A program made the translations under genes and the position numbers. Below are positions 10,013 to 56,419 of a stretch of 64,000 bases of DNA, piece by piece. The stretch's first letter is position 1; each line of letters opens with the position of its first letter. The notes under the pieces are model-generated. The model had not been told where the DNA came from, ran no database searches, and saw only the letters and a list, made by a program, of their open reading frames with translations. Source of the stretch: Spirochaetes bacterium ADurb.BinA120 (GTDB lineage Bacteria; Spirochaetota; UBA4802; UBA5368); the NCBI GenBank assembly GCA_002069125.1, contig MVZN01000001.1:5909-69908 (forward strand), read 5' to 3'.

Positions 10013-10202
10013 CTAATCATCCTTCCCCAAGTGGGGCACGTCCCTTTGGTGGGTACTTGTTTTTAGTCGATCCCGGCGGTTCTTTGTTGACAAAAAGTCT
10101 TTGACAAAAACGGCCATAAAATACTTTTTCATAAAATCACAATCGGTAACCGCCTGCCGGGTGCATCCGGGGCGCAGTCCGGTAAATGCGGGTTTATCGC
10201 CA

Positions 10203-10421
10203 ATGGCCAGAAAAAAGCACAGGGTTGTAGTAAAATCGGAGCTCTGCAAGGGATGCGATCTGTGCATAGTCTATTGTAAAAAGGGCGTCCTTGCCTCCTC
10301 CGAAGACCTCAACAAGGCAGGTTATCATTACGCAAGCCCCGACGATTCCAAAGAGTGCACCGGCTGCATGGTGTGCGTTCTGGTGTGTCCCGAGGTCGCG
10401 ATAGAGGTGTACGGTGAATAA
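10203..10421 (+). CDS. korD: 2-oxoacid:ferredoxin oxidoreductase delta subunit (4Fe-4S ferredoxin)
   Basis: Two CxxCxxCxxxCP motifs (CKGCDLCIVYC, CTGCMVCVLVCP). ATG at 10203 inside the longer TTG ORF. Confidence 0.8.
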   Translation: MARKKHRVVVKSELCKGCDLCIVYCKKGVLASSEDLNKAGYHYASPDDSKECTGCMVCVLVCPEVAIEVYGE

Positions 10422-12229: not shown

Positions 12230-12230
12230 T

Positions 12231-12782
12231 ATGCTGGTAAAGATACTGTTCGCGGGAAGCGGCGGCCAGGGCGTCCTCACCATGGGTAACATCCTCGGCA
12301 ATGCAGCCATGTTCGAGGACTTACAGGTCACCTACCTGCCGGCCTACGGCGCGGCCGTACGCGGAGGGACCGCAAACTGCACCATCTGCATATCCGACGA
12401 GGAGATAGCATCGCCGGTGGCCTCCGCGCCGGACTTCGTGGTGGCGCTCAACCATCCCTCGGCGGCCGCGTTCAGCACCAGGCTCGAGCCGGGCGGCCAG
12501 ATGATCTACAATTCGGACCTCGTGGGCGAGCTTATAAGCCGCGGCGACATCACCATGTTTCCCGTGCCGGCCAACGGAATCGCCAAGGGCCTGGGCAACG
12601 AGCGCTCGGCGAACATGGTTATGCTGGGCGCCTTTATAAGATTGACAAAAGTGATAAAAGTCGATTCGATTTACCGGAGCGTCGAGTACATGTTAGGCGC
12701 GAAGAAGAAGCTGGTGGAGATTACAAACCGGGCCGTGGAGGAGGGCTACAACGGCTTTCCCTTCGGCAACGGTTCATTATAA
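12231..12782 (+). CDS. korC: 2-oxoacid:ferredoxin oxidoreductase gamma subunit
   Basis: ILFAGSGGQGVLTMGNILG gamma-subunit signature. Confidence 0.85.
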   Translation: MLVKILFAGSGGQGVLTMGNILGNAAMFEDLQVTYLPAYGAAVRGGTANCTICISDEEIASPVASAPDFVVALNHPSAAAFSTRLEPGGQMIYNSDLVGELISRGDITMFPVPANGIAKGLGNERSANMVMLGAFIRLTKVIKVDSIYRSVEYMLGAKKKLVEITNRAVEEGYNGFPFGNGSL

Positions 12783-33993: not shown

Positions 33994-34767
33994 TTATGTT
34001 TTAGAGCTGTATCCAAGCTGTAAGGACACCTGACTCGAGGTGTACCGCACGGAAGCCGCCATCCGATCCCGGTCGCGGCGGATGTGTTCGGCCTCTCCGG
34101 TGATGACGAAACCAGCCACAACCTGTCCAGTGTAATTGAAAATAGGCCCGCCGATTCCCGCCAGCCCGACGATGGACTCCTCATTGTCGAAGGCGATGCC
34201 CTCTCTTGCCACCCTTTCAAGCTCCTTTATGAAGCTCTCATGGTCCCCGATGGAGTTCCTGGTAAGCTTTTCAAAGGGATAGTCCCGCAGTATTCCGTTT
34301 CGCTCGCCGGCCGGCATGTGGGCGAACAGAATCTTCCCGATGCATGTAGTGTGGATGGGGATGACCGAACCGGCCTGCGGAAACACCATGAAGCGGTTTT
34401 CGGGCTCAACGCGAAGCACCACTATTACCCTGTCGCCTACCAGCATGCCGACGTTTACCGGCTCCATGAACTGGAAGCACAGCCGCTCCATCCATGCCCG
34501 GGCTATTATGACCAGGTCCATGTTCGTGGCGTACTTCATTCCCAATTGAAAGAGGGCGGGGCCAAGGCGGTATTTGGAGGTGATGTGGTCCTTTTCGAGG
34601 AACTTAAGCGCCTCGAGGGTCTGCACGATGCTGGAGATGGTGGTTTTAGGGAGGTTCAGCCTCGCCGCAAAATCCGTAATCCCCATGGTCCGTTTCTCCT
34701 GGATAAAAATGCCAAGTATGTCGGACGCCCGTTTTATGGATTGGATAAGGCGTTTCTGCTTCGCCAT
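33994..34767 (-). CDS. IclR family transcriptional regulator
   Basis: N-terminal HTH (SIKRASDILGIF...GITDFAARLNLPKTTISSIVQTLE) plus C-terminal IclR effector domain. Confidence 0.8.
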   Translation of the reverse strand: MAKQKRLIQSIKRASDILGIFIQEKRTMGITDFAARLNLPKTTISSIVQTLEALKFLEKDHITSKYRLGPALFQLGMKYATNMDLVIIARAWMERLCFQFMEPVNVGMLVGDRVIVVLRVEPENRFMVFPQAGSVIPIHTTCIGKILFAHMPAGERNGILRDYPFEKLTRNSIGDHESFIKELERVAREGIAFDNEESIVGLAGIGGPIFNYTGQVVAGFVITGEAEHIRRDRDRMAASVRYTSSQVSLQLGYSSKT

Positions 34768-34821
34768 GTTCGCTCCTTTCTCCGCCGACGTGAAATATTT
34801 ATTTTAACGGCGCTTATCTGA

Positions 34822-34880
34822 TTGACATATTATATGCTCTGCTATAATAATGGAACATCGTACGATATTGTCGTACAATG
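34822..34880 (+). promoter_or_regulatory. Promoter candidate (TTGACA ... TATAAT/ATAATA) with downstream palindromic operator ATCGTACGAT plus half-site TCGTACAAT
   Basis: TTGACA at 34822-34827 and TATAAT at 34843-34848. A perfect 10-bp palindrome sits at 34857-34866. The region lies divergent between iclR and the hgd-like operon. Confidence 0.5.
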
Positions 34881-34969
34881 TCAAGTATGATTATCCGCCG
34901 TTCCGGGTTCCGCGGACTCGATGCGGCGCCTTAGGCGGCCTCGTTATTCCATACTACAGGTGGCAGGGC

Positions 34970-36091
34970 ATGAACACGATCCGGCAATTTCAAGATGTAA
35001 TAGACGACAGCGGCGGGTACGCGCGGCGCCTCAAGCAGGGCTCCGGCGGCAAGATCCTCGGCTATTTCTGCACCTATACGCCGGAGGAGATCATCCATGC
35101 GGCTGGGATCCATCCCATGAGGCTTTTCGGGACCCGCTTTGCGATAGCCCATGCCGACGCCCATCTCCAGGCCTATAGCTGTTCACTGGTGCGCGGGGTG
35201 CTCGAGGAGGCGCTGGCCGGCAGGCTGGAGTTTCTGGACGGGGCCGTATTCCCTCACACGTGCGACTCCATACAGCGGCTTTCGGACATCTGGCGGCTCA
35301 ATATTGATTTCAGCTTTCACGCCGATGTGGTGCTCCCGGTGAAGCTCGACACTGCGAGCGCGAGGAAGTACATGGCGGACGTTCTGCGTAAGTTTCGCCG
35401 GGAGCTCGAGGAGAAGATGGGCCTCTCCATCTCCGACGAAGCCCTCTTAAAATCCATTAAAACCTTCAACACCATCAAGCGGGCGCTCGAAAAGATCTAC
35501 CGCCTGCGAAGTGAAAACCCGGGGATCATCTCCGGGGCCGACGTATACACCCTGGTTAAGGGCGCAATGATCATGGACCGCTCCGAGGCCGCGGAGAAAC
35601 TTTCCGCCTTCGCCCAGGCGCTCGGCTCGGAGAAGGCAAAGGGCCCCGACGCTCGCCGGCGCATCGTGGTAAGCGGGGGGCTCTGCGATCATCCCGTTAT
35701 ATACGACCTCATCGAGAAATCGGGCGGCGCGGTGGTCTGGGACGATCTGTGCACGGGGTCGCGCTACTTCGAGGGGCTGGTGTCGGAGGAGGGCGATCCT
35801 TACGAGGCCCTTGCCGACCGGTATACCGATCGCGTCGTCTGCCCGGCCAAGCATTCGTCCATCACCGCCCGCGGCGACAATCTTGTCCGCATAGCGAAGG
35901 AGCACAGCGCCTCGGGCGTCATTTTCCTTCTGCTCAAGTTCTGCGATCCCCATGCCTTCGACTATCCGTACATGAAGGAGATGCTGGACGGCATTGGGGT
36001 CCCGAGCATGTTGATGGAGATCGAGCAGGACCTTCCATCGGAAGGGCAGCTTTCAACGCGCTTCGAGGCGTTTATCGAGATGCTTCGCTGA
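34970..36091 (+). CDS. 2-hydroxyacyl-CoA dehydratase / benzoyl-CoA reductase B-C family subunit (HgdB/BcrB-like)
   Basis: HgdB-like N-terminus GKILGYFCTYTPEEIIHAAGIHPMRLFG. Conserved Cys residues. Confidence 0.7.
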   Translation: MNTIRQFQDVIDDSGGYARRLKQGSGGKILGYFCTYTPEEIIHAAGIHPMRLFGTRFAIAHADAHLQAYSCSLVRGVLEEALAGRLEFLDGAVFPHTCDSIQRLSDIWRLNIDFSFHADVVLPVKLDTASARKYMADVLRKFRRELEEKMGLSISDEALLKSIKTFNTIKRALEKIYRLRSENPGIISGADVYTLVKGAMIMDRSEAAEKLSAFAQALGSEKAKGPDARRRIVVSGGLCDHPVIYDLIEKSGGAVVWDDLCTGSRYFEGLVSEEGDPYEALADRYTDRVVCPAKHSSITARGDNLVRIAKEHSASGVIFLLLKFCDPHAFDYPYMKEMLDGIGVPSMLMEIEQDLPSEGQLSTRFEAFIEMLR

Positions 36092-36158
36092 CGGGCGGCG
36101 CCGGGCCCCGACGCGGCGGCCGGACGTTTCCGTTAGACACCAATCGAGGAGAAAGAAC

Positions 36159-37406
36159 ATGTCGGAAGAACAGCTTAAAAAGGACCCGGAAAAGGAAAAG
36201 ATGAAGGTCAAGTCCGTCAAAAAGATGAAGGAGATAATGACCGCGTACTATATAGACGCAAAGACCGCCTCCCAGAACGGGAAAAAAGTCGGCTGGATAA
36301 CCAGCGGCGGGCCGGTGGAACCGATTATCGTGATGGACGCCATTCCGGTATACCCGGAGAACCATGGCGCTATGATCGGGGCGGCGAAGATGGGCGTGGA
36401 CCTGTGCGAGAAGGCCGAGGACATGGGATATTGCCGCGACCTGTGCTCGTATGCGCGCTCGGACATAGCCGCCTCACTCGTAAACGGCGGCCCGATCGGC
36501 GGCCTCCCGGCGCCGGACTTCCTGGTGTGCGGCAACAACATCTGCGGCACGGTGCTCAAATGGTATGAGATACAGGCGCGCTACTACAAGGTGCCGCTTT
36601 TTATATTCGATACGCCCTTCTGCCACACCGAGTTCTCGAGCGAGGCGCGCGAATACGTACGCAGGCAGATCGACGAATATATCAAATTCCTCGAAGAGGT
36701 CTGCGGTAAAAAGTTCGACATGGACAGGATGAAGGAGGTCGGACGGCTCTCCCTGCAGGGGCAGCGCCTGTGGCAGGAGGTGCTCGACACATCCATGAAC
36801 AAGCCCGCGCCGCTCTCGGCCTTCGACGCGTTCTTCCATCTGGCCCTCATCGTCACGCTCCGGGGGACCCAGACGGCGGTTGACTACTACGTAATGCTCC
36901 TCGAAGAGATGAAGGAGCGCGCGGCGCAGAAGATCGGCTCTATCCCCAACGAGCGCTACCGCCTGCTGTGGGACAATCTGCCCGTATGGTACAAAACCAG
37001 ATGGCTGTCGGAGAAGTTCGCCTCGTACGACGCCTGCCTGGTCGCCGACACCTACACCACGGCCTGGTGCGGCTCGCTGGACTACCTCGACGAAAACGAC
37101 TTTTTGGGGTCCATGGTCGAAGGATATACGCGCATTTACCTGAACATCGGCGTCGACGAGATGCTCAAGATCATCAAGAAGATGATTAAAAAATACGAGG
37201 TGGACGGGTTCGTGATGCACTCCAACCGGAGCTGTAAGCCGTACTCGCTCGGCCAGTACGACATCATGAAAACACTACAGAAGGAGATGGGGCTTCCGAG
37301 CCTGATGATAGAGGCGGACATGGTCGACGAGCGCTCCTGGAGCGAAAGCCAGATAGAGACCCGCATAGACGCCTTCATGGAGATAATCAAGCAGAAAAAG
37401 GGATGA
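36159..37406 (+). CDS. 2-hydroxyacyl-CoA dehydratase family subunit (HgdA/BadD-like)
   Basis: KVGWITSGGPVEPIIVMDAIPVYPENHGA...CSYARSD motifs typical of the A subunit. Confidence 0.7.
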   Translation: MSEEQLKKDPEKEKMKVKSVKKMKEIMTAYYIDAKTASQNGKKVGWITSGGPVEPIIVMDAIPVYPENHGAMIGAAKMGVDLCEKAEDMGYCRDLCSYARSDIAASLVNGGPIGGLPAPDFLVCGNNICGTVLKWYEIQARYYKVPLFIFDTPFCHTEFSSEAREYVRRQIDEYIKFLEEVCGKKFDMDRMKEVGRLSLQGQRLWQEVLDTSMNKPAPLSAFDAFFHLALIVTLRGTQTAVDYYVMLLEEMKERAAQKIGSIPNERYRLLWDNLPVWYKTRWLSEKFASYDACLVADTYTTAWCGSLDYLDENDFLGSMVEGYTRIYLNIGVDEMLKIIKKMIKKYEVDGFVMHSNRSCKPYSLGQYDIMKTLQKEMGLPSLMIEADMVDERSWSESQIETRIDAFMEIIKQKKG

Positions 37407-37465
37407 AAGCCCGATAGACGCGACCGTCGGGCCGCGCCATAACTTAATACGGAGGAATGGTCACC

Positions 37466-39184
37466 ATGTACGAGAAAAAACCATGGCTCAAGTTCTACGG
37501 CGATGTACCCGAATCGATCGATTACCCAAGGATCACAATGTATCAGGCGGTAATGAATACCGCGGCCAAATACCCGGACGCGATAGCTTACGATTTTCTC
37601 GGCTATACTTCGACCTACAAGCGGTTTGCCGAGGAGATTAACAGGTGCGCTGACGCGCTTGCCGCGCTGGGATTGAAGAAGGGCGACCGCGTGACCATCT
37701 CGATGCCCACAAGCCCCCAGGGCATAATATGCTTCTACGCGGTGAACAAACTGGGGGCGGTCGCGAGCATGATCCATCCACTCTCGCCGCCGAAGGAAAT
37801 CGAGTTTTATCTCAACATCAGCAAGAGCGTAATGGCGCTTACCATCGACGCGTTCTATGGAAATTTCAACCAGGTGATGCACAAGACGGATTGCAAAAAG
37901 CTCATCCTGGCGCGTATTCCCGATTACCTGGGGCTGGTCAAGAGGATCGGCTTCAACCTGACCAAGGGCCGAAAAATTCCCAAGGTGCCCCGGGACGAGC
38001 GGGTGGTCTGGTGGAACGAGCTGATGCACGGGTCCTATCCCGAGGCCGCGAAGGCCGATATGGCGCCGGACGATATGGCGGTCATACTCTACAGCGGAGG
38101 CACCACCGGAGTGCCCAAGGGAATAATGCTTTCCAATTACAACTTCATAAGCGAGGGGATGATGGTCGCGCACTGGGGCGGCATGGACAGGACGAGCTCG
38201 GTGCTGGCCATTCTCCCCATCTTCCATGGATTCGGCCTGGGCGTATGCGTAAACGCCGCGTTTATGGGGGGCGGGAAGAGCATTCTCGTTCCGACCTTCA
38301 CGCCGGAGGACGTGGCGAATCTTATCAAATCCAAACGCCCTACATTCGTAATCGGCGTACCGACGCTCTTTATGGCCCTGTCGAAAAACGAGAAGTTCAA
38401 AAGGACCGATCTCTCCTGCCTTAAGGGCTGCTTTAGCGGGGCGGACACCCTTCCGCGCGAGGTAAAAGAGGAGTTCGAGGGGATAGTCCGCAGACAGGGA
38501 GGCAACGTCAAGCTGCTCGAGGGATACGGCCTGACTGAAGCGGTTACCGCCATTGGGGCCATGCCTTTTAACGAGTATCGCGAGGGGAGCATCGGGGTTC
38601 CCTTTTCGGATATGATAGCCAAGATAGTGAAAATGGGCTCCGACGAGGAGTGCGCTCCGGGCGAGGAGGGCGAGATTTGCCTTTACGGCCCGGCCGTAAT
38701 GCTCGGGTATCTCGACCAGCCGGAGGAAACGGCCAGGGTTTTAAAGAAGCACTCCGACGGGAAGATCTGGCTGCATACCGGGGACATGGCGAGCATGGAC
38801 GCCGACGGCTTCATGTACTTCAAGCAGCGCATCAAGCGCATGATCAAGTCCTCCGGGGTGAACGTATATCCCGGCCAGGTGGAGGACGTTCTGCGCCAGC
38901 ACCCGGCCGTCGACATGGCCTGCGTCATTGGCGTGCCGGACAAGGCGCAGGTTTCGCGCGTGAAGGCCTTCGTTGTGCTTAAAGACAAATCGAAGGCCAC
39001 CCCCGAAATGGCGGGCGAGCTCATCAAGCATTGCGCGGAGCACCTGCTTAAATGGAGCTGCCCGCGCGAGGTGGAATTCCGTGACGATCTGCCAAAGACC
39101 CTTGTGGGCAAGGTCGCGTTTAACACACTCGAAGAGGAAGAAAAGACGAAACTCCGCGCTGCGGGGCAGTACGCCGGAGATTGA
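37466..39184 (+). CDS. AMP-dependent acyl-CoA synthetase/ligase
   Basis: AMP-binding motif YSGGTTGVPKGIMLSNYN, plus YGLTE and GDMASMDADGFMYFKQRIKRMIK motifs. Confidence 0.85.
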   Translation: MYEKKPWLKFYGDVPESIDYPRITMYQAVMNTAAKYPDAIAYDFLGYTSTYKRFAEEINRCADALAALGLKKGDRVTISMPTSPQGIICFYAVNKLGAVASMIHPLSPPKEIEFYLNISKSVMALTIDAFYGNFNQVMHKTDCKKLILARIPDYLGLVKRIGFNLTKGRKIPKVPRDERVVWWNELMHGSYPEAAKADMAPDDMAVILYSGGTTGVPKGIMLSNYNFISEGMMVAHWGGMDRTSSVLAILPIFHGFGLGVCVNAAFMGGGKSILVPTFTPEDVANLIKSKRPTFVIGVPTLFMALSKNEKFKRTDLSCLKGCFSGADTLPREVKEEFEGIVRRQGGNVKLLEGYGLTEAVTAIGAMPFNEYREGSIGVPFSDMIAKIVKMGSDEECAPGEEGEICLYGPAVMLGYLDQPEETARVLKKHSDGKIWLHTGDMASMDADGFMYFKQRIKRMIKSSGVNVYPGQVEDVLRQHPAVDMACVIGVPDKAQVSRVKAFVVLKDKSKATPEMAGELIKHCAEHLLKWSCPREVEFRDDLPKTLVGKVAFNTLEEEEKTKLRAAGQYAGD

Positions 39185-41355: not shown

Positions 41356-43032
41356 ATGCTGCTCGGCATTGACGTGGGGGGGACTCACACGGACGTCGTG
41401 GTTGTAGACGCAAGGGGAGTGAGGGCCGCCGCCAAGGTGGTAACCAATCACGAAAACCTCTTCGAATCGGTCAACGGCGGTATCGCCGCCATGCTGCGTG
41501 AGGTCGACGCCGCCGGGATCGAGCGCATCAACCTCAGTACTACGCTCTCCACGAACGCTATCGTGGAAAATACAATCGAAAAGGTGGGAATGCTTGTAAG
41601 CGCCGGCCCGGGAATAGAGCCGGCCAGTTTTACGATCGGCGATCAGTATCATCGCATCGAAGGCGCGCTCGATCATCGCGGAGCGGAGATACTCCCCCTG
41701 GATGAAAAGCGCCTGGAGAAGGCGATAGCCGCTTGCCGCAAGGCGGGCATAAAGGCCTATGCGGCCGTGTCCAAATTCTCCACAAGGAATCCCGCCCACG
41801 AGAACTCGATGCGGGAAGCGCTTGCCGGCTCGGCGGATTTCATCACCCAGGGCCATGCCATTTCGGGAAACCTCAACTTCCCCCGGCGTATCGCGACCGC
41901 CTATTATAACTCTTCCGTGTGGCGGATCTACAATCGCTTTGCCGACGCGGTGGAAAAGGCGCTCGGGGAGTACGGTGTACGCGCCTCGGTAAACGTGCTC
42001 AAGGCCGACGGCGGCACCATGCCGCTTGCCGTATCGCGCCTGCTTCCGGTCGAAACCATACTCTCGGGGCCTTCCGCAAGCGTAATGGGGATACTTGCGC
42101 TCTGCGACATCGGCGTCGATTCGGTCGTCCTCGATATCGGAGGAACCACCACCGACATCGCCGTGTTCGCAAGCGGCGGTCCCCTCATTGAGCCGGATGG
42201 TATCGCGCTTAACGGAAGGAACACACTGGTCCGCGCCCTAAGAACCCGCTCCATCGGCATAGGGGGCGACTCTCTTCTCAGGGTAGAGGGCGGCGAGGTG
42301 AGGGTTGGGCCGGAACGCCTCGGCCCGGCCGTGGCGGACGGGGGTGTGCTTGCAACACTGGTGGACGCCTTCAACCGGCTTGGGGCCGACGCGCACGGGA
42401 ATACGGAGGCCTCCGCGAGGGCGATGGAGGACCTGGCCAAGAAAAACGGCATGAACGGAGAGGAGCTGGCCCGCAGGGCCGTGGAGCGCGCCACCGCTTT
42501 CATAAAATCCTCGGTGGACGAAATGATAGCGGAGATCAACGAGCGCCCCGTTTATACCATTCACGAAATGCTCGAGGGCCGAAGGATCGCGCCCGAGCGC
42601 ATATATGTCGTCGGAGGACCGGCGGAGGCGTTCAGGAAGGAGCTTGCGAGGGCCTTTTCGCTCGAGGTGACCGTTCCGCGCGATTACGCGGTAGCCAACG
42701 CCATCGGCGCGGCGCTCGCCCGAACGACCATGAGCATCGAACTGCTGGCCGATACGGAGATGGGCATGCTGATGATCCCGGAGCTGGGCGTATCGCGCGA
42801 GGTGCCGGCCTCGTACACGCTCGAGGAGGCGGGTGAAGACGCGCGGCGCTACCTTATCGGACACCTGGGCAAGACCGCACCAGGGGAGCGCGTACAGGCC
42901 GAGGTGGTCCACGCGGCCTCATTCAATATGGTGCGGGGATACCATACCGCGGGCAGAAACATTCGCGTCCGCTGCCAGGTGAAGCCGGGTATCCTCGAGA
43001 AATACGAAAAGGGGGTGCGGGGAACATGCTGA
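41356..43032 (+). CDS. Hydantoinase/oxoprolinase (HyuA-like, ASKHA ATPase) family protein
   Basis: N-terminus LLGIDVGGTHTDVVVVD, second phosphate motif LDIGGTTTDIA, 558 aa. Confidence 0.6.
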   Translation: MLLGIDVGGTHTDVVVVDARGVRAAAKVVTNHENLFESVNGGIAAMLREVDAAGIERINLSTTLSTNAIVENTIEKVGMLVSAGPGIEPASFTIGDQYHRIEGALDHRGAEILPLDEKRLEKAIAACRKAGIKAYAAVSKFSTRNPAHENSMREALAGSADFITQGHAISGNLNFPRRIATAYYNSSVWRIYNRFADAVEKALGEYGVRASVNVLKADGGTMPLAVSRLLPVETILSGPSASVMGILALCDIGVDSVVLDIGGTTTDIAVFASGGPLIEPDGIALNGRNTLVRALRTRSIGIGGDSLLRVEGGEVRVGPERLGPAVADGGVLATLVDAFNRLGADAHGNTEASARAMEDLAKKNGMNGEELARRAVERATAFIKSSVDEMIAEINERPVYTIHEMLEGRRIAPERIYVVGGPAEAFRKELARAFSLEVTVPRDYAVANAIGAALARTTMSIELLADTEMGMLMIPELGVSREVPASYTLEEAGEDARRYLIGHLGKTAPGERVQAEVVHAASFNMVRGYHTAGRNIRVRCQVKPGILEKYEKGVRGTC

Positions 43033-47112: not shown

Positions 47113-47336
47113 AGTCATAAAAATTAGGCTTTATCGTCGGCCGAAGATGGACAGAAAAGACTAACTACTTAATCTGCAGGTAGTTAGGTTATAAAGAAAA
47201 GTTAAAATTATTAGTTTTAGGACTTCCCTTGATTTCTAAGAGAGGTATAGGATAAATTGGTCAATGCCGGTCGGCCGCGATGTTTTGGCGGGTGGCGGGC
47301 CGAGGGCATTTCCGGGGATATTATCGCCGGATTATA

Positions 47337-48191
47337 ATGGGTCGGATGAACAGAAACGAGATCATACGGACCGCCAGGTCGCTTGGGCTTTCGCCGAACA
47401 AAAGGCTCGGCCAGAACCTCCTGTGCGATTCCGGCATCACGCAAAAGATAATAGACTCGGCCGGTGTGACCGCCGAGGACAGCGTGCTCGAGGTCGGGCC
47501 GGGCCTCGGCGCGCTGACCGGTGGACTTCTCGATAGGGCGGGTTCGGTAACGGCCGTGGAGATAGACGCCGGCTTCGCGCGCTTTCTCTCACAGCGCTTT
47601 GCGGGCAACGCCCGGCTTAAATTGATACACGGCGATTTCCTTAAAATGGCGCCAGAGCTGGGTTTTACGAAGGCTGTTTCGAACCTTCCGTATTATTGCT
47701 CGTCGGAAGCGCTTTTCCGGATAGCCTCGGACTATCGCATACCCTCGGTATACGTAATGCTCCAGAGGGAGATGGCCAGGCGCATTACGGCCGCCCCCGG
47801 AAGCCCCGAGTACGGCGCCCTCTCCGTTTCGCTCGGCATCTATTACAGGGCGCGTACGCTCTTTTCCATACCGCCCGAGTGTTTCTATCCGCGGCCGGAC
47901 GTGGTTTCTGTGTTCATAGCGCTCGATCTGCGGCGCGACGTAGAGCTTGATGGAGAGAAGCTCGCGCTATTTCACCTTCTAATAAAATCGGCCTTCTGGG
48001 GTCGCAGAAAAACCCTTATAAAGGCCCTTTCCGAGTCCCCGCATATTGCGCTTGACCGGAAAACGGTGGCCGATGTTCTTGCGGGGATGGGCTTCGACTC
48101 GAGGATACGGGGGGAGGATATGTCGATTGCCGATTTTATGGCGCTAAGCGAAGGATTGAAGGAGGCAGCGAATGCCGCCGTTAAGGGATGA
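47337..48191 (+). CDS. rsmA: 16S rRNA (adenine1518/1519-N6)-dimethyltransferase
   Basis: LGQNLL, SAM motif VLEVGPGLGALT and NLPY motifs. Confidence 0.85.
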   Translation: MGRMNRNEIIRTARSLGLSPNKRLGQNLLCDSGITQKIIDSAGVTAEDSVLEVGPGLGALTGGLLDRAGSVTAVEIDAGFARFLSQRFAGNARLKLIHGDFLKMAPELGFTKAVSNLPYYCSSEALFRIASDYRIPSVYVMLQREMARRITAAPGSPEYGALSVSLGIYYRARTLFSIPPECFYPRPDVVSVFIALDLRRDVELDGEKLALFHLLIKSAFWGRRKTLIKALSESPHIALDRKTVADVLAGMGFDSRIRGEDMSIADFMALSEGLKEAANAAVKG

Positions 48192-50622
48192 ACTTTTGGT
48201 AGAGCTGCTCTCCTCCGTCCAGAAGCCGGCGCGCTACACGGGCGGAGAGTACAACCAGGTGCGGAAGGCCGGGGCACAGCTTCGCATGGCGGTCTGTTAT
48301 CCCGACCTGTACGAGGTCGGGATGTCGAATCATGGCATCAGAATATTATACGATATAGTAAACTCTATCGAATGGGCGGCGTGCGAGCGCGTTTTCGCGG
48401 TCGACATGGACATGGAGGCGCGGCTTCGGGCCATGGGCCTCCGGCTATTTACAATCGAAACCCGCACTCCGCTTTGCGAGCTCGACATGTTGGCCTTCAA
48501 CCTTTCGCACGAGCTTCTTTACACAAACCTGCTCCAGGTGCTGGACCTCGGAGGCATCCCGCTCGCGGCGGCGGACCGCGGCGAGGCCTGCCCAATCGTC
48601 ATCGCGGGCGGAGAGGCCGCATGCAATCCTGCGCCTATGGGGGAGTTTGTCGACGCCTTCTATTTGGGCGACGGCGAAGAAGGGATCGTCGAATTAGCGG
48701 AGTGTCTGCTGCGGGCGAAACGGCAGGGCGTACCGAGAACCGGGTCGCTCGCCATGTTAGAGGAGATTGAAGGCGTATACATTCCATCGCTCCACCGTTA
48801 CGTGCGGTCAAATGGACGGCTTGCGGCCGTGGAGGGTAAAAGAGTAAAAAAGCGTTCGTATCGCGCCTCCTCGCCGCATTTTCCTCTTCGCCCCATCGTC
48901 CCGAACATACGCGTCGCGCAGGACAGGGCCATCGTCGAGGTTACGCGCGGCTGCTCCAATATGTGCCGCTTCTGCCACGCGGGCTATTACGATCTTCCCT
49001 GCAGGGAATATGCCCCCGGGGCCCTCTCCGACGGGATTATGACCATGCTCGATAACTCGGGCTACGACGAGCTTACCCTCGCTTCGCTGTCCATAAGCGA
49101 TTATCGCGGGCTGGTAGACCTTCTAAACAAAATTCTTCCCGGCTTAAACGAGCGCGGGGTTTCGGTTTCGCTGCCCTCGCTTCGCGTGGATACCGGAACG
49201 CTCCCGATAATAGAAGGCGTCTCCTCCCTCAGGAAGGCCTCCCTTACCTTCGCCGTGGAATCCGCGTCGGAACAGATGCGTATGCTTGCCAACAAGAGGA
49301 TATCCACGGAGGACCTGCTTTCCATCATGGCGCATGTTTTCGAAAAGGGATGGCGCACCATAAAACTATATTTCATGATCGGCCTTCCCGGATGCGAAAC
49401 GACCGATGAAGCCGTGGAGACTGCCGCGCTTTTAAAAAGAATCGCCTCGCTTGCGAGGGGGAAAAGGGAGATAAACGTAACGGTGTCCCCTTTCGTGCCA
49501 AAACCGCTCACGCCTTTCCAGTGGGAGCGCCAGATGGACGCGGCGTACTTTCTGGATGTAGTAAAGCGCCTCAAACGGGAAGCGCCGCGCCAGGCAAGCA
49601 TAAAGAACCACAACGTGGAATCCTCGGTGCTGGAGGGGGTGCTCTCGCGCGGCGACGAGCGCCTCTCGAGCGTTATACTGGGTGCCTATATGGACGGGGC
49701 GAGGCTCGATTCGTGGAGCGAACATTTCGACTACGCCTTATGGGAGAGGAACCTAAACGCACGGCTTCCGGATTGGAGCTCTCTCCTCGAACGAAAACCG
49801 GACGATACGGTCTTCCCCTGGGATGCCGTGGAGACAGGTTTCGAGGGACTGCTGGACATTCATAAGAGCGGCCGCGTAAGCCCGTCCTCTCTTGCGAAAA
49901 GGGCCACAAGGCCCATGCCGGCCCTAACGGCGCACGATGGGTCGCTTGAGGCTTTCGAGCGGAAGTATACCGTGGCCGGCCATGCGCGGCTTCGCCTTTC
50001 CAAGACCGGCTTGGCCCGTTATGTGCCTCATATCGATTTTATCGAGATCGTAAAACGATCGCTTCGAATGGCGGGCGTACCGGTTTCGTTTTCCCAGGGA
50101 TTTAACAAGCGCGAAAGGGTGTCCTCGGGCTTCCCCCTGCCGCTCGGTGTCGAAAGCCTATGCGAGTTTCTCGATGTGGACCTGTACATGGAAACGGACG
50201 TAATGGCTTTGCCGGGCCTCATGAACGGCCGGCTTCCGGAGGGAATAAGAGTGGAATCCGCGCGCCGTCTCGACTCGAGGGAGTCGCTCATGGCGCTAAC
50301 CGGCGCGATGGAGTATGCGGCCGTCACGGAAGACGGAGAAATCCTCTCTGCGATGAGGCGGAATGTCGAATCGCGCGTCTCTTTTACGAGGGAGGCGAAA
50401 AAGGGGACGGTGGAGCTCGCCTTTGACGATGCCGTACTAAAGGCGGAATTCGATGATGAGGGGCTTCGCCTTTTACTTTCGACGGAGGAGGCGAAGGCGC
50501 TTCGCATAGACCGCGCGGTAATGGCGCTCGCCGAGATTTCAGCGGACAGGCTTCATCGCGTCCGGCTTATCAGGCTTCGCCAGTTTCGCTTGACTGAGGC
50601 CGGTCCCCTCGAGATATTTTAG
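48172..50622 (+). CDS. Radical SAM protein (B12-binding-like N-domain plus radical SAM core) fused to a C-terminal DUF2344-like domain
   Basis: CSNMCRFC (CxxxCxxC) radical SAM motif. 816 aa. Start overlaps the rsmA 3' end by 20 bp. Confidence 0.7.
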   Translation: MPPLRDELLVELLSSVQKPARYTGGEYNQVRKAGAQLRMAVCYPDLYEVGMSNHGIRILYDIVNSIEWAACERVFAVDMDMEARLRAMGLRLFTIETRTPLCELDMLAFNLSHELLYTNLLQVLDLGGIPLAAADRGEACPIVIAGGEAACNPAPMGEFVDAFYLGDGEEGIVELAECLLRAKRQGVPRTGSLAMLEEIEGVYIPSLHRYVRSNGRLAAVEGKRVKKRSYRASSPHFPLRPIVPNIRVAQDRAIVEVTRGCSNMCRFCHAGYYDLPCREYAPGALSDGIMTMLDNSGYDELTLASLSISDYRGLVDLLNKILPGLNERGVSVSLPSLRVDTGTLPIIEGVSSLRKASLTFAVESASEQMRMLANKRISTEDLLSIMAHVFEKGWRTIKLYFMIGLPGCETTDEAVETAALLKRIASLARGKREINVTVSPFVPKPLTPFQWERQMDAAYFLDVVKRLKREAPRQASIKNHNVESSVLEGVLSRGDERLSSVILGAYMDGARLDSWSEHFDYALWERNLNARLPDWSSLLERKPDDTVFPWDAVETGFEGLLDIHKSGRVSPSSLAKRATRPMPALTAHDGSLEAFERKYTVAGHARLRLSKTGLARYVPHIDFIEIVKRSLRMAGVPVSFSQGFNKRERVSSGFPLPLGVESLCEFLDVDLYMETDVMALPGLMNGRLPEGIRVESARRLDSRESLMALTGAMEYAAVTEDGEILSAMRRNVESRVSFTREAKKGTVELAFDDAVLKAEFDDEGLRLLLSTEEAKALRIDRAVMALAEISADRLHRVRLIRLRQFRLTEAGPLEIF

Positions 50623-50677: not shown

Positions 50678-51469
50678 ATGGATCTAGGCTTGCGGAACAG
50701 GGTTGCCGTAGTTACGGCGTCGAGCAGGGGGCTCGGCCGCGCCGTGGCCGAGGCGCTTGCGGCCGAAGGGGCGAGGCTCGCCCTGTGCTCCAGGGACGCC
50801 GACGCGATACGGAAGACCGCGGAGATTATCGGAGATAATTACGGGGTGGATGTATTTGCCGCTCCGTGCGACGTGACCGATCCATCGGCGGTGGAGGCCT
50901 TCGCCGGGGAGGCGCTTCGGCGCTTAGGCGAGGTCCATATACTTTTCGCCAACGCGGGCGGGCCTCCGCCGGGCATAGTTCAGGATTTCGCTCCCGAGGA
51001 CTTCCGTAAGGCCCTGGAGCTCAATCTTCTAAGCACCATCGGCCTTGTGCACGCCTTTATGCCCGCCATGAAGCGCCTCGGGTGGGGCCGCATCATCGCC
51101 TCCACGTCGATAACCGTAAAACAGCCGGCTCCGAACCTCGCGCTCTCCAACGTATCGCGCGTCGGCGTGGTCGCTTACATGAAGACGCTCGCCGGCGAGC
51201 TCGCCTCGCACAACATCACCTGCAACACGGTCGCGCCTGGCTATATCCTGACGGACCGCGTCGAGGGTCTTATAGCTGGAATGATGGAAAAATCCAAAAT
51301 GGCATACGAGGAGGCGAGGCGCTCCATCACCGCGGGGATACCGGCCGGACGTATAGGATCTCCGGAGGAGTTCGGCTCGCTTGTCGCCTTTCTGGCCTCG
51401 GAGAGGGCGGCATACATCACGGGAGAGACCATCCTTATCGACGGCGGGGCGTACCGCGGGCTTATGTGA
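50678..51469 (+). CDS. SDR family oxidoreductase
   Basis: VTASSRGLG cofactor motif, NAG, catalytic YxxxK region. Confidence 0.8.
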   Translation: MDLGLRNRVAVVTASSRGLGRAVAEALAAEGARLALCSRDADAIRKTAEIIGDNYGVDVFAAPCDVTDPSAVEAFAGEALRRLGEVHILFANAGGPPPGIVQDFAPEDFRKALELNLLSTIGLVHAFMPAMKRLGWGRIIASTSITVKQPAPNLALSNVSRVGVVAYMKTLAGELASHNITCNTVAPGYILTDRVEGLIAGMMEKSKMAYEEARRSITAGIPAGRIGSPEEFGSLVAFLASERAAYITGETILIDGGAYRGLM

Positions 51470-51595: not shown

Positions 51596-52894
51596 TTACG
51601 AAATCTCCTCCTTCGCAAGCGCCGATTCCTTCATCAGGCAGCTCAGCACGACATTCACTACGGCCAGCGCGATGAACCCGATCATGAATGGCGTAAGCGT
51701 GATGGTGCTTTCCGCCCTGTTAGCGTCGGCCATGGCTTCGATGGTTACATGCCCCAGTATGGCCATCAGCGTGATAAAAATGGTGCCGGAAACCTGTCCC
51801 GAAAGAACGATCATCCCCTGCGAGGTCGACTCGGGGGCCGGATGGCTCACCTCGGCGGCGTACTGGTAGCCGATCGGGGCCGCGCCCATGAAGAAAAAGC
51901 CGAAAACACCGCTGGCGATGAGCAGCAATGCGTAGGAGGACGCAAAGGTAAGCCCCGCAAGCCCCGGGATGAGGCCCAGCATGCAGATCACCAGAAAGAG
52001 TTTTCGTTTCATGAGCCTGTCGGAGAAAATCGGCACGACAATGGCTCCCAGAACTCCCGCAATCATCATGAGGGCGCCGATGTCCCCAGCTTCGTGACCA
52101 CCGGCCTTGTAGCCCTTGCCCGCGAGAATGAGGTCTACGAAAGTGGTGATGGCGTTGAACATCCCGAGGCCGATGAAGAAAATCAGCAGCAGAAATATCA
52201 TGTCGCGCTGCCGGAAAAGGTGGCGCAGCCCGTCGAACATGCCGTAGCGCTCCTCGGCCGATTCCGCGTCCGGCGGTGAAGGGGGTTTGTCTCTGACGAT
52301 TAGGATGAACAGCACGGCTGAAACGATAGAGACGTAACCGTAAACCGTAAGCATCGATTTCATCGCCGGCAGGGTCAGGGCGGTGCTTCCCGCCGGAAGA
52401 AACATTTCGGCGATGGGCCGTGTGGCCGCCATGGCTATTATGATTCCAATGAACTGAAAGAGCGCGGTAACTCCCGAAGCTGTCGCCCGTTCGTTGATGG
52501 GGAACCATTCGGCCGCCACCTTGGTGATGGCGTTCATGATGAATGGCTGGGCCGCCGCCAGCGCAAACTGCGCCAGGCACACGGCGGTGTAACTCTCGCC
52601 TCCCACCCCGCGGACATAGCCGAATACACCGGTGAGCGCGGCGCCGATTCCAACGCCGATACGGATTCCATAGCGCCCGATGATGTACGACGCCGGCACG
52701 CTCATGACGAGGTACACGAGCATGAACGACATGGAAAGCAACACGATCCAGAAGGCGGAGACGCCGTACAGCGCCATTGCGTCCACCGTAACAGGCGCAA
52801 AGGTTATCCAGTCGAGTTGTATGACGCCGTTGAGGAGCGCGAATACAAGGAGAACCATCCATCGGTATGCGTAAACCGTATACGTTTTCTGCAT
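51596..52894 (-). CDS. MFS transporter
   Basis: 12 predicted TM helices, MFS-like loop motifs. GGAGG RBS. Confidence 0.75.
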   Translation of the reverse strand: MQKTYTVYAYRWMVLLVFALLNGVIQLDWITFAPVTVDAMALYGVSAFWIVLLSMSFMLVYLVMSVPASYIIGRYGIRIGVGIGAALTGVFGYVRGVGGESYTAVCLAQFALAAAQPFIMNAITKVAAEWFPINERATASGVTALFQFIGIIIAMAATRPIAEMFLPAGSTALTLPAMKSMLTVYGYVSIVSAVLFILIVRDKPPSPPDAESAEERYGMFDGLRHLFRQRDMIFLLLIFFIGLGMFNAITTFVDLILAGKGYKAGGHEAGDIGALMMIAGVLGAIVVPIFSDRLMKRKLFLVICMLGLIPGLAGLTFASSYALLLIASGVFGFFFMGAAPIGYQYAAEVSHPAPESTSQGMIVLSGQVSGTIFITLMAILGHVTIEAMADANRAESTITLTPFMIGFIALAVVNVVLSCLMKESALAKEEIS

Positions 52895-53145
52895 GCAGAA
52901 TCCTCCGTGTTCAGGATATGGCTCTCGTGCCGGCGGAGGCTGGCGGGTCGGCGCGCGCAGGGAGATCCCTGTGAGGAAAAGCTCCTGGAGTCATAATTGC
53001 GGGGGATCATGACGCATGCGTCGGGAAAAGTCAATTCAAAAATAGTAAAGTGTAATAATACATTTCTCCGGGGCGGGGGCGGAGATCTCATGTGCGAAAA
53101 GATCGAACGCGAAGCCGGTCACGGAATGGTGTCCCGGTACGCTGT

Positions 53146-55512
53146 TTATAAACCAAGCCTGGTCCTCGCGATGATTTCGCCCTTTACCGAGTCGGGCAGA
53201 TCGTCGAAGTACGCCGAGTAGCCCGCGACGCGCACCACAAGCCCCGGGTGTGTTCCCGGATTCCGCCGGGCCTCCTCGAGCGCGGCGGGATCGACCACGT
53301 TGAACTGCATCTCCATCCCCCCCGAAGCGAAGAAGCCTTTTGCGAGCGCCGTCAAAACGGAAAGCCCGCGTTCTCCCGCGACCGTGTGCGGGTCGAACCG
53401 CAGGTTGAGGGCGTATCCGTTGGGCGCCAGCTCGGACTCTATCCTGGCGACGGAGTTGAGGAGCGCCGTGGGGCCCAGGCGGTCTCGCCCCTGGGACGGG
53501 TCGAGGCTGGCGGCGAAGGGCTCGCCCGAACGCCTGCCGCTCGGGAGGGCCCCGGTGTACCGACCGAAGCCGACATGGGAAGTCGAGGAGTAAAAGCCGG
53601 GAACATACGGCCCCCCACGCGTGTTCAGGTGCCGGGCGAGAGCGGAATGAAAAATCCGCACGACCATGGCCGCGTAGCCGTCGGGAAGTTCGACATCGTT
53701 TCCGTATTTGGGCGCGTTGAGCAATTCGGCCCGCATGACCGGATCGGAGGTGAAATCCGTCCGCATCGCGTCAATTACCTGCGTCAGCGTATAGCGTTGC
53801 CTCCGGTAAACGATATGATCGAGGGCCGCCAGGGAGTCCGCGGTGTCCGCTACGCCCACACCCTGTATCCCGCTGGAGTTGTACAGCGCGCCACCGGCGG
53901 TCGTGTCTTTCCCGGATTCGATGCATCCGTCCACCAGCATGGAAGAAAACGGGGTGGGGTGATAATCGCGGTTGCCGCGTTCGATGACCTGAATATCGGA
54001 GATGAACCGGCCAACCATGTGGGATACCTGCGCACGGAACGCCTCGAGAAGATCTTCGATACCGCCGAAGCCCGCAGGGGACGGCGTATATGCTCCCACG
54101 CGGGCGCCTCCGCAGAGGCGCCTCCCCCGGTTGAGCGCGAGTTCGAGGCATACGGGCAGATTGAAGAGCGCGGCATCGGTCGAGAAGAAGCTCTTTCCCG
54201 GCAGGGCCAGCTCCACGCAGCCGACCACGCCGTAGTTGCGCGCTTCTTCCTGCGGATAGCCGTGACGCAGCAGTGCCGATATCGACGCCTCATCGTTGAA
54301 GAGGGCGGGAACGCCGTTCCCCCTCCTCGCCACATCCACGGCTCTCAGCACATAGCGCTCGGGTGCTCCGGGGTGAATGCGCGCCTGGTAGTTCGGGTCG
54401 CGCAGCCCGGATTCTTCCATAACATCCAGGAAGATATAGGTGAGATCATTGACCGCGTCATTTCCGTCCTCGTCGATGCCTCCAACGATGGCCGCCTGTG
54501 CCACGAGATATCCGCCGTGGTATTCGCTGGTGCGCTCGGAGAGAAGAAAGACATGTTCCGTCGCCTTGGCGGAGAAGCAGAGAAGAAGCTCGCGCGCACG
54601 CTCCGGCGTGATGCTTCCCGCTTCGAGGTCGTCGCGGAAATAGGGATAGAGATACTGGTCGATCCGCCCGAATGAAACGGCCGAATTGATGCTCTCAAGG
54701 CATACCCCCATGTGGGATAGCCAGAGGGACTGGACCGCCTCGTGGAACGTTCCTGCGGGCTCAAACGGAACCTTCGCGCAGATGCGCTCTATCTCCTTCA
54801 GCTCGGCCCGGCGCTCCGCGTCGCTTTCGGTTTGCGCGAGCCGCGCCGCCTCAGCCGCGAGTTTCCCCGCGAAAGCGACGATTCCGTCGCATGCGATAAT
54901 CGCCGCGCGGTGGAAGTCCGCCCCGCCTTTCTCAAGCTCTTCGATATATCCGCGGATTCCGATCTTCAGGATTCTTTCGTAGTTTGGAAGGAAATGCCCG
55001 ATGCCTCCGGCCTCGTTTATAAGGTAATACGTCGCGTTGAGCTGCTCGGCCGCATAGCGCAGGAAACGTCCGATGCGCGGGTAGAACGCGCGGAAGACAA
55101 GATTGCGGAAAGACCAGTATGGCACCACGCGCGTGAAAAGCTTCAGGCGATCGCGCCGGGATATCCGCATGGGGTTCGTGCCTCTTTTCTCGATGCGGGC
55201 GAGGTCCGCGATCATCGAAATGACGCCCGAGAGCTCCGGCTGGATTATGGCGGATTTCCTGCGGGTGCCCATATTGCCGGCTATCAGCTCATCGGGGAAG
55301 ATGATCGCGGACTTCGAGCTCATCAGGTGCCGGAAGGCCTTTGCCTTGCGGACGATCATCGGATCCGCCGGTGAATCGTGCCTCTTGAAGTATTCGGTGA
55401 CCAGGTATGCCCTCTCGGGGCACAGATGCATGGGCTCACCGAGAAGCGCGTTCTTTATCCGCTGGAAGCGTGCGGATCGATGATCCAGGAGTACGGCACT
55501 GTTTTCAATCAT
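53146..55512 (-). CDS. Glycyl radical enzyme, PFL2/glycerol-dehydratase-like clade
   Basis: PFL2-type N-terminus (PMHLCPERAYLVTEYFKR). Active-site GCVE (thiyl Cys plus Glu). C-terminal glycyl-radical motif VVRVAGYSAYF. Confidence 0.85.
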   Translation of the reverse strand: MIENSAVLLDHRSARFQRIKNALLGEPMHLCPERAYLVTEYFKRHDSPADPMIVRKAKAFRHLMSSKSAIIFPDELIAGNMGTRRKSAIIQPELSGVISMIADLARIEKRGTNPMRISRRDRLKLFTRVVPYWSFRNLVFRAFYPRIGRFLRYAAEQLNATYYLINEAGGIGHFLPNYERILKIGIRGYIEELEKGGADFHRAAIIACDGIVAFAGKLAAEAARLAQTESDAERRAELKEIERICAKVPFEPAGTFHEAVQSLWLSHMGVCLESINSAVSFGRIDQYLYPYFRDDLEAGSITPERARELLLCFSAKATEHVFLLSERTSEYHGGYLVAQAAIVGGIDEDGNDAVNDLTYIFLDVMEESGLRDPNYQARIHPGAPERYVLRAVDVARRGNGVPALFNDEASISALLRHGYPQEEARNYGVVGCVELALPGKSFFSTDAALFNLPVCLELALNRGRRLCGGARVGAYTPSPAGFGGIEDLLEAFRAQVSHMVGRFISDIQVIERGNRDYHPTPFSSMLVDGCIESGKDTTAGGALYNSSGIQGVGVADTADSLAALDHIVYRRQRYTLTQVIDAMRTDFTSDPVMRAELLNAPKYGNDVELPDGYAAMVVRIFHSALARHLNTRGGPYVPGFYSSTSHVGFGRYTGALPSGRRSGEPFAASLDPSQGRDRLGPTALLNSVARIESELAPNGYALNLRFDPHTVAGERGLSVLTALAKGFFASGGMEMQFNVVDPAALEEARRNPGTHPGLVVRVAGYSAYFDDLPDSVKGEIIARTRLGL

Positions 55513-55597
55513 GTCGACCTTTCCTTCGCGATTCGGGGAATACCCGGTTGCGATACCGTCGCCGGAAACGCGGTCCCCACGGTCTCACGGAATATCA

Positions 55598-56419
55598 TCA
55601 TTTCCCTTGTTCTATACCTATTTCCGAAATACAGGTATCGTTGTACTTCGTTCCCCTGTACACGGAAAGTATCTCGACGGCGAGAAAGGTGCTGTCTTTG
55701 TGATCAACGGCCGGTTTCCCGTTTTCGATAACGCTCCGGAAGGCCAGTCCCCTGCGAGGCGGCAGGGGGAGCGGTTGCCAGCCGTTCAGATCCTTCAGGG
55801 TGACTTCATGAGAGCCAACCACGGTAATGTCTTCGAAAACGAGACCAGTTTCGTACTGGCCGATCTCCTTGCGGGCCTGTCTGGCCTGTAAGGCCCATAT
55901 CCTGATTTTTCGGGCGCGGTTGTTGGCCTTATATAGATGGTCGCTCGCGCCAAGCCCGCTCCATATCCGTACGGGTTTTGTCGTGTCCACCTTCACGACG
56001 AGTACTTCGCCGACACCTTCGTCCTTTTTTCCTTCGCACCATGCGGTCGAGGTATCGCCGTCCATGGCGCTGAGGGCGGTGTACATGCACGACCAGTTTT
56101 CAAGGGCCCTCCAGGATGCGTATTCGGCCTCGTCTTCGTCCATGTTCGCGGTGGGAATTGGCTTGACGGGAGGCTTGCCGGTCGCCCCGAGGTGTGAGCT
56201 GCTCCAGTCGCAGATATCGCCGCCCATATGCACGCCTCCCCACCAGGTGAGCGCGCCGATGGATCCTTTCTTTAACAATTCGGGCAACCTGGGATTGCCG
56301 GCCCTGCCACAAGGGGTGGCCGTTTCGGCCTGAGCGCGGACATTCGTGGAGAATGACATGAACGCGACCGCGAGCACCATCGGTACGACCGCACAATATT
56401 TTCTGATGAAGGATGACAT
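55598..56419 (-). CDS. Hypothetical secreted protein (possible discoidin/F5-8-type-C-like carbohydrate-binding domain)
   Basis: Signal peptide MSSFIRKYCAVVPMVLAVAFMSFSTNVRAQA. DGDTSTAWCEG motif is reminiscent of discoidin domains. GGAGG RBS. Confidence 0.5.
   Translation of the reverse strand: MSSFIRKYCAVVPMVLAVAFMSFSTNVRAQAETATPCGRAGNPRLPELLKKGSIGALTWWGGVHMGGDICDWSSSHLGATGKPPVKPIPTANMDEDEAEYASWRALENWSCMYTALSAMDGDTSTAWCEGKKDEGVGEVLVVKVDTTKPVRIWSGLGASDHLYKANNRARKIRIWALQARQARKEIGQYETGLVFEDITVVGSHEVTLKDLNGWQPLPLPPRRGLAFRSVIENGKPAVDHKDSTFLAVEILSVYRGTKYNDTCISEIGIEQGK

Follow-up and report, generated by a model that had tools for sequence, protein, structure and literature searches.

What does a glycyl radical enzyme (GRE) do, and how is it activated, when no activase gene lies beside its own? 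The question is raised by a 64-kb stretch of the contig MVZN01000001.1 of Spirochaetes bacterium ADurb.BinA120, called the window below (64,000 nucleotides, all of which were analysed). It encodes a 788-residue GRE. The function of GREs is usually predicted from an adjacent activase and from pathway genes. An activase adjoining the GRE gene is a usual, if not strictly defining, feature of these enzymes, and it is absent at this locus. The gene had been called an orphan in a prediction made earlier from the sequence alone (the original prediction). The main addition made here is that this orphan status extends from one genome to a clade. The enzyme belongs to a distinct, multi-phylum, uncharacterised GRE clade, and the missing activase linkage is a trait of that clade rather than of a single genome. 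It is rather likely that the enzyme is a functional radical 1,2-eliminase or isomerase of the CXE type, with a new specificity and activated in trans.

The Gene and Its Protein

The gene and the motifs needed below lie as follows. GD stands for glycerol dehydratase and PD for 1,2-propanediol dehydratase.

53146..55512, minus strand: 788-residue GRE of a PFL2-type clade (Pfam, NCBIfam, AlphaFold fold match, dN/dS)
54985..55005, minus strand: GIGH173FLP loop, in which His173 is the equivalent of GD His164 (translation; alignment to 1R8W)
54679..54687, minus strand: N276-S277-A278, specific to the family, in place of the G-H281-S282 of GD and PD (alignment to 1R8W, 5I2A and 9RCO; coordinates computed from the reading frame of the gene)
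54211..54222, minus strand: Cys loop G-C432-V-E434, the CXE motif (translation; alignment to GD Cys433/Glu435)
53212..53232, minus strand: Gly loop RVAG764YSA, residues 761-767, with the predicted glycyl radical site (translation)

The protein has the layout of the GRE superfamily. A PFL-like barrel domain (PF02901, 576 bits) is followed by a C-terminal glycine-radical domain (PF01228, 89 bits), and the GCVE and RVAGYSA motifs that the original prediction had pointed out could be mapped. The AlphaFold (AF2) model, with a pLDDT of 84.8 and a pTM of 0.89, matches GRE structures at a TM score of about 0.9.

A homolog search gave 1480 matches at E < 1e-50, the best 120 of which are 65-94% identical to the query. 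Gly764, Cys432, Val433, Glu434, His173 and Asp446 are invariant in the family (120/120 members), and identity reaches at least 98% at 226 of the 788 positions. The frame is uninterrupted, and dN/dS against Spirochaetota orthologs is 0.08-0.09. This is a working gene under purifying selection with intact catalytic residues. The family consensus of the Gly loop is R-V-[SA]-G-Y-C-A. The residue two positions after the glycine is Ser in the window protein (RVAGYSA), whereas it is Cys in 117 of 120 members (RV[SA]GYCA).

The identical protein sequence occurs on 20 public contigs with constant gene order, including the metagenome-assembled genome (MAG) GCA_029565585.1 and a JGI contig of 312 kb. It is also carried by contig Ga0116248_10000005 of JGI 3300010351. 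The protein was deposited from uncultured Spirochaetota, such as the bacterium named above. The deposited names clash for this one sequence (OPZ39728.1, HPI14500.1, HPO45407.1). OPZ39728.1 is called “Benzylsuccinate synthase alpha subunit”, other records are called “pyruvate formate lyase family protein”, and “formate C-acetyltransferase” also appears among the source names.

Placement of the Family

At least 59% identity to the window protein is found in 24 full-length sequences, all from MAGs. Their hosts belong to Spirochaetota/Leptospirales, Syntrophales/Smithella, Dehalococcoidia, Desulfobacterales, Desulfomonilia, Bacteriovoracaceae and Actinomycetota, and a tar-biofilm MAG is among the carriers. 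Identity among the family members themselves is likewise 59% or more. Below this group there is a gap in identity. Two sequences stand at 45-46% (loci L028 and L029), and all others are at most 36% identical to the window protein. In neighbour-joining trees the family is monophyletic in 50/50 bootstraps, with L028 and L029 as its sister group, also in 50/50.

The 788-residue protein falls below every NCBIfam cutoff. For the PFL2-3 subfamily (TIGR01774) it scores 624.1 bits against a cutoff of 678.2, and the family is a divergent branch of PFL2-type enzymes. The HypD, CutC, HpsG/HpfG, PflD, IAD and HPAD equivalogs give 250-486 bits against cutoffs of 1000-1150, and the pyruvate formate-lyase (PFL) equivalog TIGR01255 gives 125 bits against 994. 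Genuine CutC controls in the same scan reached 1554-1688 bits. The sister loci likewise remain below all NCBIfam cutoffs.

Known structures are ranked alike by fold and by sequence. PFL2 of Archaeoglobus fulgidus (AfPFL2) comes first, with 509 bits and a TM score of 0.91. The structural matches of the AF2 model have the following identities:

2F3O (AfPFL2): 38%
PD and GD: 33-35%
PflD: 32%
CutC: 30-31%
HypD: 30%
IseG, HpsG and IslA: 28%
MASS and BSS: 23-24%

The characterised PFL2-type enzymes are all listed in a 2026 review of GREs (PMC13450708), and every one of them falls among these distant matches (at most 38%). GREs that are 40-50% identical are generally functionally distinct (PMC11528403). 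The suggestion of an uncharacterised specificity is supported by this placement outside every characterised clade. The two observations that the original prediction had named as telling against it, an adjacent activase and a fit within a characterised clade, were both looked for and neither was made.

A literature search found no paper describing the clade. A paper on a limonene GRE was set aside because its topic is an X-succinate synthase unrelated to the clade. The clade is not categorically new, since uncharacterised GRE clades are already known (PMC13450708) and there are earlier examples of GREs activated in trans. It is nonetheless clearly delimited, abundant and wrongly annotated, and its systematic loss of the link to an activase is unusual.

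The Search for an Activase

In stating that no activase lies within about 7 kb, the original prediction understated the case. None was found in the 64-kb window by motif scan, hidden Markov model (HMM) or Pfam. The activase-free span reaches 53 kb on one side of the GRE gene; on the other it covers the 8.5 kb that remain before the window ends.

Across the whole window, a CxxxCxxC scan of stop-to-stop open reading frames of at least 100 residues matched only the TIGR03960 radical SAM protein (48172-50622). In the six-frame translation of the window, an HMM trained on 40 bona fide GRE activases gave one weak match (30.7 bits) and no activase. The weak match, at 10017-10418, was rejected as an activase; it is the ferredoxin subunit (10101-10421) of a 2-oxoacid:ferredoxin oxidoreductase. 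Pfam annotation of the remaining large reading frames of the window showed no second GRE, activase or microcompartment genes. These frames are ordinary metabolic and signalling genes.

For the comparison across the clade, loci were added by a scan of one genome per species (L005-L084). Loci were counted if 3 kb or more of sequence flanked the GRE gene on each side, flanks were taken up to 10 kb, and an activase was scored as an HMM match above 100 bits in the six-frame translation. An activase is nearby in 1 of the 20 well-flanked family loci, for which 449 kb of flanks were searched in total, as against 32 of 35 non-family PFL2-type loci. The sole exception in the family is L004, where the activase follows a second GRE. 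This second GRE was rejected as a family paralog, having 29.5% identity and a different Gly loop (RVAGFAA). Five more loci, with independent gene calls and precomputed Pfam matches, have no activase.

The sister clade (L028/L094 and L029/L093, from a Deltaproteobacteria MAG and an unclassified source) contains the nearest relatives, at 45-46% identity. Unlike the family, it has kept a canonical activase gene immediately before the GRE gene, and the two overlap by 4 nt at the GRE start. Since the sister clade keeps this overlapping operon, the linkage was lost on the stem of the family. The activase and GRE genes of the sister clade lie at 10001-13419 of L093 and 10001-13326 of L094. Their surroundings vary, with a nucleoside hydrolase and AtuA/methylcrotonyl-CoA-carboxylase-like genes at one locus and a GH39 glycosidase at the other. 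The sister clade also represents an unassigned GRE specificity.

Several candidates were rejected. Weak matches of the activase HMM in the window, L013, L014, L015 and L091 are CxxCxxCxxxCP ferredoxins or CCG-type Fe-S proteins, not radical SAM proteins. The C50 proteins in L018, L019 and L022 are RlmN-like, and two radical SAM proteins in L011 are SPASM/heme-biosynthesis-like, in both cases by motif only. An apparent 1371-residue activase-GRE fusion in L028 is spurious and arises from a frame that stays open upstream; the activase is read in another frame and ends before the GRE. A search with the cognate activase of the sister clade gave matches in Nitrospirae, Myxococcota, Binatia and others, not in the lineages of the GRE family.

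The Active Site

Active-site positions of the window protein were assigned by alignment to GD (1R8W), with counts over the 120 family members. The correspondences are as follows:

His173, GD His164: proposed general acid for the leaving hydroxyl (role in GD: PMC13450708)
Cys432 and Glu434, GD Cys433 and Glu435: catalytic pair
Asp446, GD Asp447: conserved
Tyr335 and Tyr641, GD Tyr336 and Tyr640: conserved
Ser277 and Ala278, GD His281 and Ser282: replacement invariant (120/120)
Position 338, Val (99) or Ala (21), GD Tyr339: Phe in PD and 9RCO
Position 643, Val (85) or Ser (35), GD Ser642: Val in PD

The CXE motif is defined by a Glu two residues past the catalytic Cys, and the roles of this Glu and of GD His164 have been reviewed (PMC13450708). 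The window protein has the motif as C432-V-E434, invariant in the family. The general-acid His and the Asp447 of GD and PD align with His173 and Asp446, which are invariant as well. The pocket of GD and PD, with His281-Ser282 and Tyr339 or Phe, is replaced by Ser277-Ala278 and Val/Ala338.

The original prediction had asked for the substrate-binding residues to be inspected, and three positions were found to differ from GD and PD. These positions (His281, Ser282 and Tyr339 in GD) presumably contact the substrate in GD and PD. The catalytic set for C-O elimination is kept, with a distal pocket that would be lined by smaller residues and be more hydrophobic than that of GD. Because of the changes at Ser277/Ala278, Val/Ala338 and Val/Ser643, a substrate other than glycerol is suggested. 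It might be a vicinal diol or hydroxy compound that is bulkier or less polar.

Proposed Reaction and Activation

If the enzyme works like GD, PD, HypD and YbiW, a radical-SAM activase would place the radical on Gly764. The radical would then move from Gly764 to Cys432, and the resulting thiyl radical would take a hydrogen from the carbinol carbon of the substrate. Glu434 would deprotonate the carbinol hydroxyl, and His173, together with Asp446, would protonate a vicinal oxygen-based leaving group. The product would be a carbonyl compound, and the enzyme would therefore most probably be a C-O-cleaving dehydratase or isomerase. We infer the reaction class and the leaving group, as well as activation in trans.

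The activase would be encoded elsewhere in the genome and would act in trans, probably serving another GRE as well. The Gly loop RVAGY[CS]A is of a generic PFL2 type and is identical in many activase-linked PFL2 GREs. Cross-activation is documented between GREs that share a Gly loop, for instance PflA with TdcE (PMC13450708). Since the loop is generic and cross-activation tracks Gly-loop identity, activation in trans is plausible. TdcE of E. coli, and GrcA, are precedents in that they lack a dedicated adjacent activase and are matured by PflA when the Gly loops match (PMC13450708). TdcE is, however, a close paralog of PflB with the same chemistry in the same genome, whereas here a whole clade spread over several phyla is unlinked.

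AfPFL2 (2F3O) is the best match by sequence and fold. It has the CXE motif and a His equivalent to GD His164, and the segments after the Cys loop are similar, GCVE..(G)(K/N)SF.S.DAAL.N and A(I/V)S(F/M)GRIDQYLYP. It differs in being archaeal and hyperthermophilic, and its 38% identity is far below the family boundary of at least 59%. Its function is still debated between glycerol dehydratase and alkylsuccinate synthase (PMC13450708), so no function can be transferred from it to the window GRE.

Several points weigh against a C-O-cleaving, trans-activated enzyme. The activase of this genome was not located, within a search that covered the 64-kb window, so that trans-activation is an assumption about the rest of the genome. 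The activases behind the HMM came from the out-group, and a very divergent activase could escape it; the CxxxCxxC scan is independent of the HMM. The difference in linkage between family and non-family loci has a Fisher p of 1e-10, which overstates independence because the family loci are phylogenetically related. The pocket was assigned by aligning the sequence with GD and PD rather than from a structure with bound ligand. Model confidence is lowest in the His173 loop, where pLDDT falls below 50 at residues 171-173. Finally, the gene context is uninformative, showing no consistent pathway, and C-N or C-S cleavage or a new chemistry is therefore possible.

A wider reading can be offered tentatively, as something possible rather than probable. 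Syntrophs, Dehalococcoidia, sulfate reducers and digester spirochaetes, in a clade known from MAGs only, may carry out an undescribed radical elimination or isomerisation on a common anaerobic metabolite. They would have given up a dedicated activase in favour of a shared or unrecognised activator. If this were true, genomes without another GRE-activase pair would imply a new route of maturation.

The clade defeats the usual prediction of GRE function from adjacent genes. It is abundant in environmental anaerobes of methanogenic carbon turnover, such as syntrophs, Dehalococcoidia and digester spirochaetes. Its sequences are strongly constrained. Their routine mislabelling as PFL or benzylsuccinate synthase distorts metabolic reconstructions of fermentation and of hydrocarbon degradation. 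Identification of the substrate would add a new GRE specificity. Identification of the activator would show how far one activase can reach over unrelated GREs, an open question in the 2026 review. The clade is thus a reasonable target for functional discovery.

Neighbouring Genes

The genes around the GRE gene in the window are:

47280-48191, strand opposite to the GRE: RsmA, in an operon with the TIGR03960 radical SAM gene and SDR
48172-50622, plus strand: radical SAM/DUF2344 fusion, 816 residues (TIGR03960 “rSAM_fuse_unch”, 530 against a cutoff of 462; TIGR03936, 117 against 72 bits)
50678-51469, strand opposite to the GRE: SDR, last gene of the RsmA/TIGR03960/SDR operon
51596..52894, minus strand: MFS transporter, 432 residues, downstream neighbour (MFS_1, 102 bits)
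55598..56419, minus strand: secreted protein with an NADase-type/F5-8-C glycan-binding domain, 273 residues, upstream neighbour (NADase_transloc, 65 bits; NF047619, 86 bits)

The flanking genes had been described as an MFS transporter and a secreted protein, and this description stands. The first has its MFS_1 match, and the N-terminus of the second resembles a signal peptide (MSSFIRKYCAVVPMVLAVAFMSFSTNVRA/QA, read by eye).

One alternative to an enzyme without partners is that the NADase-like protein, the GRE and the MFS transporter form an operon for acquiring and catabolising a substrate derived from glycans. The three genes share the minus strand and lie close together, 85 bp separating the 273-residue gene from the GRE start and 251 bp the GRE stop from the MFS gene. 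The adjacency of NADase-like gene and GRE is kept in several Spirochaetota genomes; it was found only there (L001, L003, L032 and L085-87). The MFS gene is present in L003, where further transporter genes are inserted after it, and in L085-87. It is absent from L001, whose GRE ortholog is 87% identical, and from other phyla, so that its role as a partner and possible importer, proposed in the original prediction, loses its footing. A sigma-70-like site at 53034-53006, in the spacer between GRE and MFS, suggests that the MFS gene may have a promoter of its own, and its linkage to the GRE is weak. Neither gene accompanies the family in other phyla, and conservation within a single lineage at 82-94% identity may be inherited synteny. 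Such an operon is therefore unlikely.

The order in Spirochaetota is NADase-like gene, GRE and optional MFS gene, then the convergent SDR, TIGR03960 radical SAM and RsmA genes, and then GSIII. The radical SAM/DUF2344 gene has 20 nt in common with RsmA, and SDR comes after it. This operon is kept in related Spirochaetota independently of the GRE. The SDR reductase was rightly noted as lying near the GRE gene, and its membership in an opposite-strand operon that is conserved on its own takes away its value as a partner. Likewise, the 816-residue fusion, which had been called unusual, belongs to a named and recurrent family. By its domain matches it is a member of a known fused family without an assigned function, and no candidate activase.

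Outside Spirochaetota, none of the NADase-like, MFS, SDR, radical SAM and RsmA genes accompanies the family GRE. When 150 neighbours from 21 loci were scanned with Pfam, no family proved to be common across phyla; SDR, PAS, ECH, AMP-binding, HGD-D and GntR are each limited to 3-5 loci. No conserved cluster of neighbours was seen at the family loci, where reading frames of at least 90 residues were analysed systematically. Rfam gave no match above gathering thresholds, and no riboswitch, in the window, L001, L004 and L007. The view that the substrate cannot be read from the context is thereby upheld across phyla. Iron-containing alcohol dehydrogenase (Fe-ADH), aldehyde ferredoxin oxidoreductase (AFOR), SDR, glpABC/ugp-like and Fer4/CCG genes lie near the GRE at some family loci, without consistency. 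These occasional neighbours would fit an aldehyde or ketone as product.

In L091 (8609-16316), the gene for a Fer4/CCG-domain protein stops 34 bp short of the GRE start, and downstream lie glpABC-like genes (anaerobic glycerol-3-phosphate dehydrogenase), a HAD phosphatase and a ugp-like ABC transporter. This context may point to glycerol-related chemistry, without recurrence at other loci. In L013 a Fer4/CCG protein is also found directly before the GRE. At 12592-14073 of L092, and at this locus only, a gene for a 493-residue B12-binding radical SAM/DUF4070 protein follows the GRE directly on the same strand. The protein is unrelated to GRE activases.

Alternative Explanations

Somewhat less likely still than the glycan-related operon is that the enzyme is an ordinary B12-independent glycerol or 1,2-propanediol dehydratase, with its activase and pathway genes elsewhere. 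GD (1R8W) and PD (5I2G and 9RCO, the latter a GRM3 propanediol dehydratase) have the same fold and are the best functionally known fold matches, with TM scores of 0.90-0.91. The family retains the catalytic His, Cys, Glu and Asp of GD, together with both pocket tyrosines (Tyr335 and Tyr641 in the window protein), and position 643 is Val in 85 of 120 members, as in PD. Fe-ADH, AFOR, SDR and glpABC/ugp-like genes near some members would also suit such an enzyme. However, identity to GD and PD is only 33-35%, and the score lies below the PFL2-3 subfamily cutoff. The “GHS” of GD and PD is an invariant “NSA” in the family, with Ser/Ala in place of His281/Ser282, and the Tyr339 of GD (Phe in PD) has become Val or Ala. 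The window lacks microcompartment shell genes, an aldehyde dehydrogenase or DhaT partner, other diol-pathway genes and an activase, and aldehyde-handling neighbours do not recur across loci.

A fumarate-adding enzyme, similar to alkyl- or benzylsuccinate synthase, is very unlikely. The name of OPZ39728.1 speaks for it, AfPFL2 as the best structural match has been proposed to activate alkanes (PMC13450708), and the family is present in Smithella/Syntrophales and in the tar-biofilm MAG. The alpha subunits of MASS and BSS are nevertheless distant, at 23-24% identity and 200-219 bits, and the CXE motif is typical of eliminases and isomerases. Family loci are devoid of activase and of conserved accessory genes, and the host of the window is a digester spirochaete with ordinary fermentative genes.

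Still less probable is activation by a non-canonical nearby protein, either the B12-type radical SAM/DUF2344 protein of TIGR03960 or the B12-binding radical SAM/DUF4070 protein of L092. In the window and its Spirochaetota orthologs the GRE does have a radical SAM gene at a distance of 2.5 kb, and the gene in L092 is directly downstream on the same strand. The TIGR03960 gene, however, belongs to the opposite-strand RsmA operon and is absent from family loci outside Spirochaetota. Neither radical SAM type is related to the other or to GRE activases, such a gene is missing from about 30 further family loci, and the other radical SAM neighbours look RlmN-like or of heme-biosynthesis type (motif only).

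The public annotation as pyruvate formate-lyase (formate C-acetyltransferase) can be dismissed, the Cys loop being G-C-V-E and not the adjacent Cys-Cys pair of PFL (C418/C419; PMC12338860) and PFL structures matching at only about 100 bits beside the low TIGR01255 score. By motif and HMM, the public names pyruvate formate lyase and benzylsuccinate synthase are both unsupported. Equally negligible is the idea that the gene is a relic, decaying or non-catalytic, for which an activase has become dispensable, as the lack of one in 64 kb might suggest, given the low dN/dS, the intact frame, the catalytic residues invariant in 120 homologs from several phyla and the recovery of the exact sequence on 20 contigs. 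The evidence remains in favour of a CXE-type eliminase or isomerase activated in trans.

Other Genes of the Window

Two further gene groups of the window may be mentioned. At 33994-39184 there are an IclR regulator, two HGD-D subunits (302 and 275 bits) and an AMP-binding CoA ligase, which would represent a second radical-type enzyme system, of the 2-hydroxyacyl-CoA dehydratase or benzoyl-CoA reductase type. No obvious activator ATPase of the HgdC/BcrAD type lies beside it; a weak BcrAD_BadFG match occurs only in the hydantoinase at 41356-43032. At 10101-12782, on the plus strand, four genes encode the 2-oxoacid:ferredoxin oxidoreductase mentioned above, with a delta ferredoxin subunit of 106 residues, an alpha subunit of 358, a beta subunit of 250 and a gamma/POR subunit of 183.

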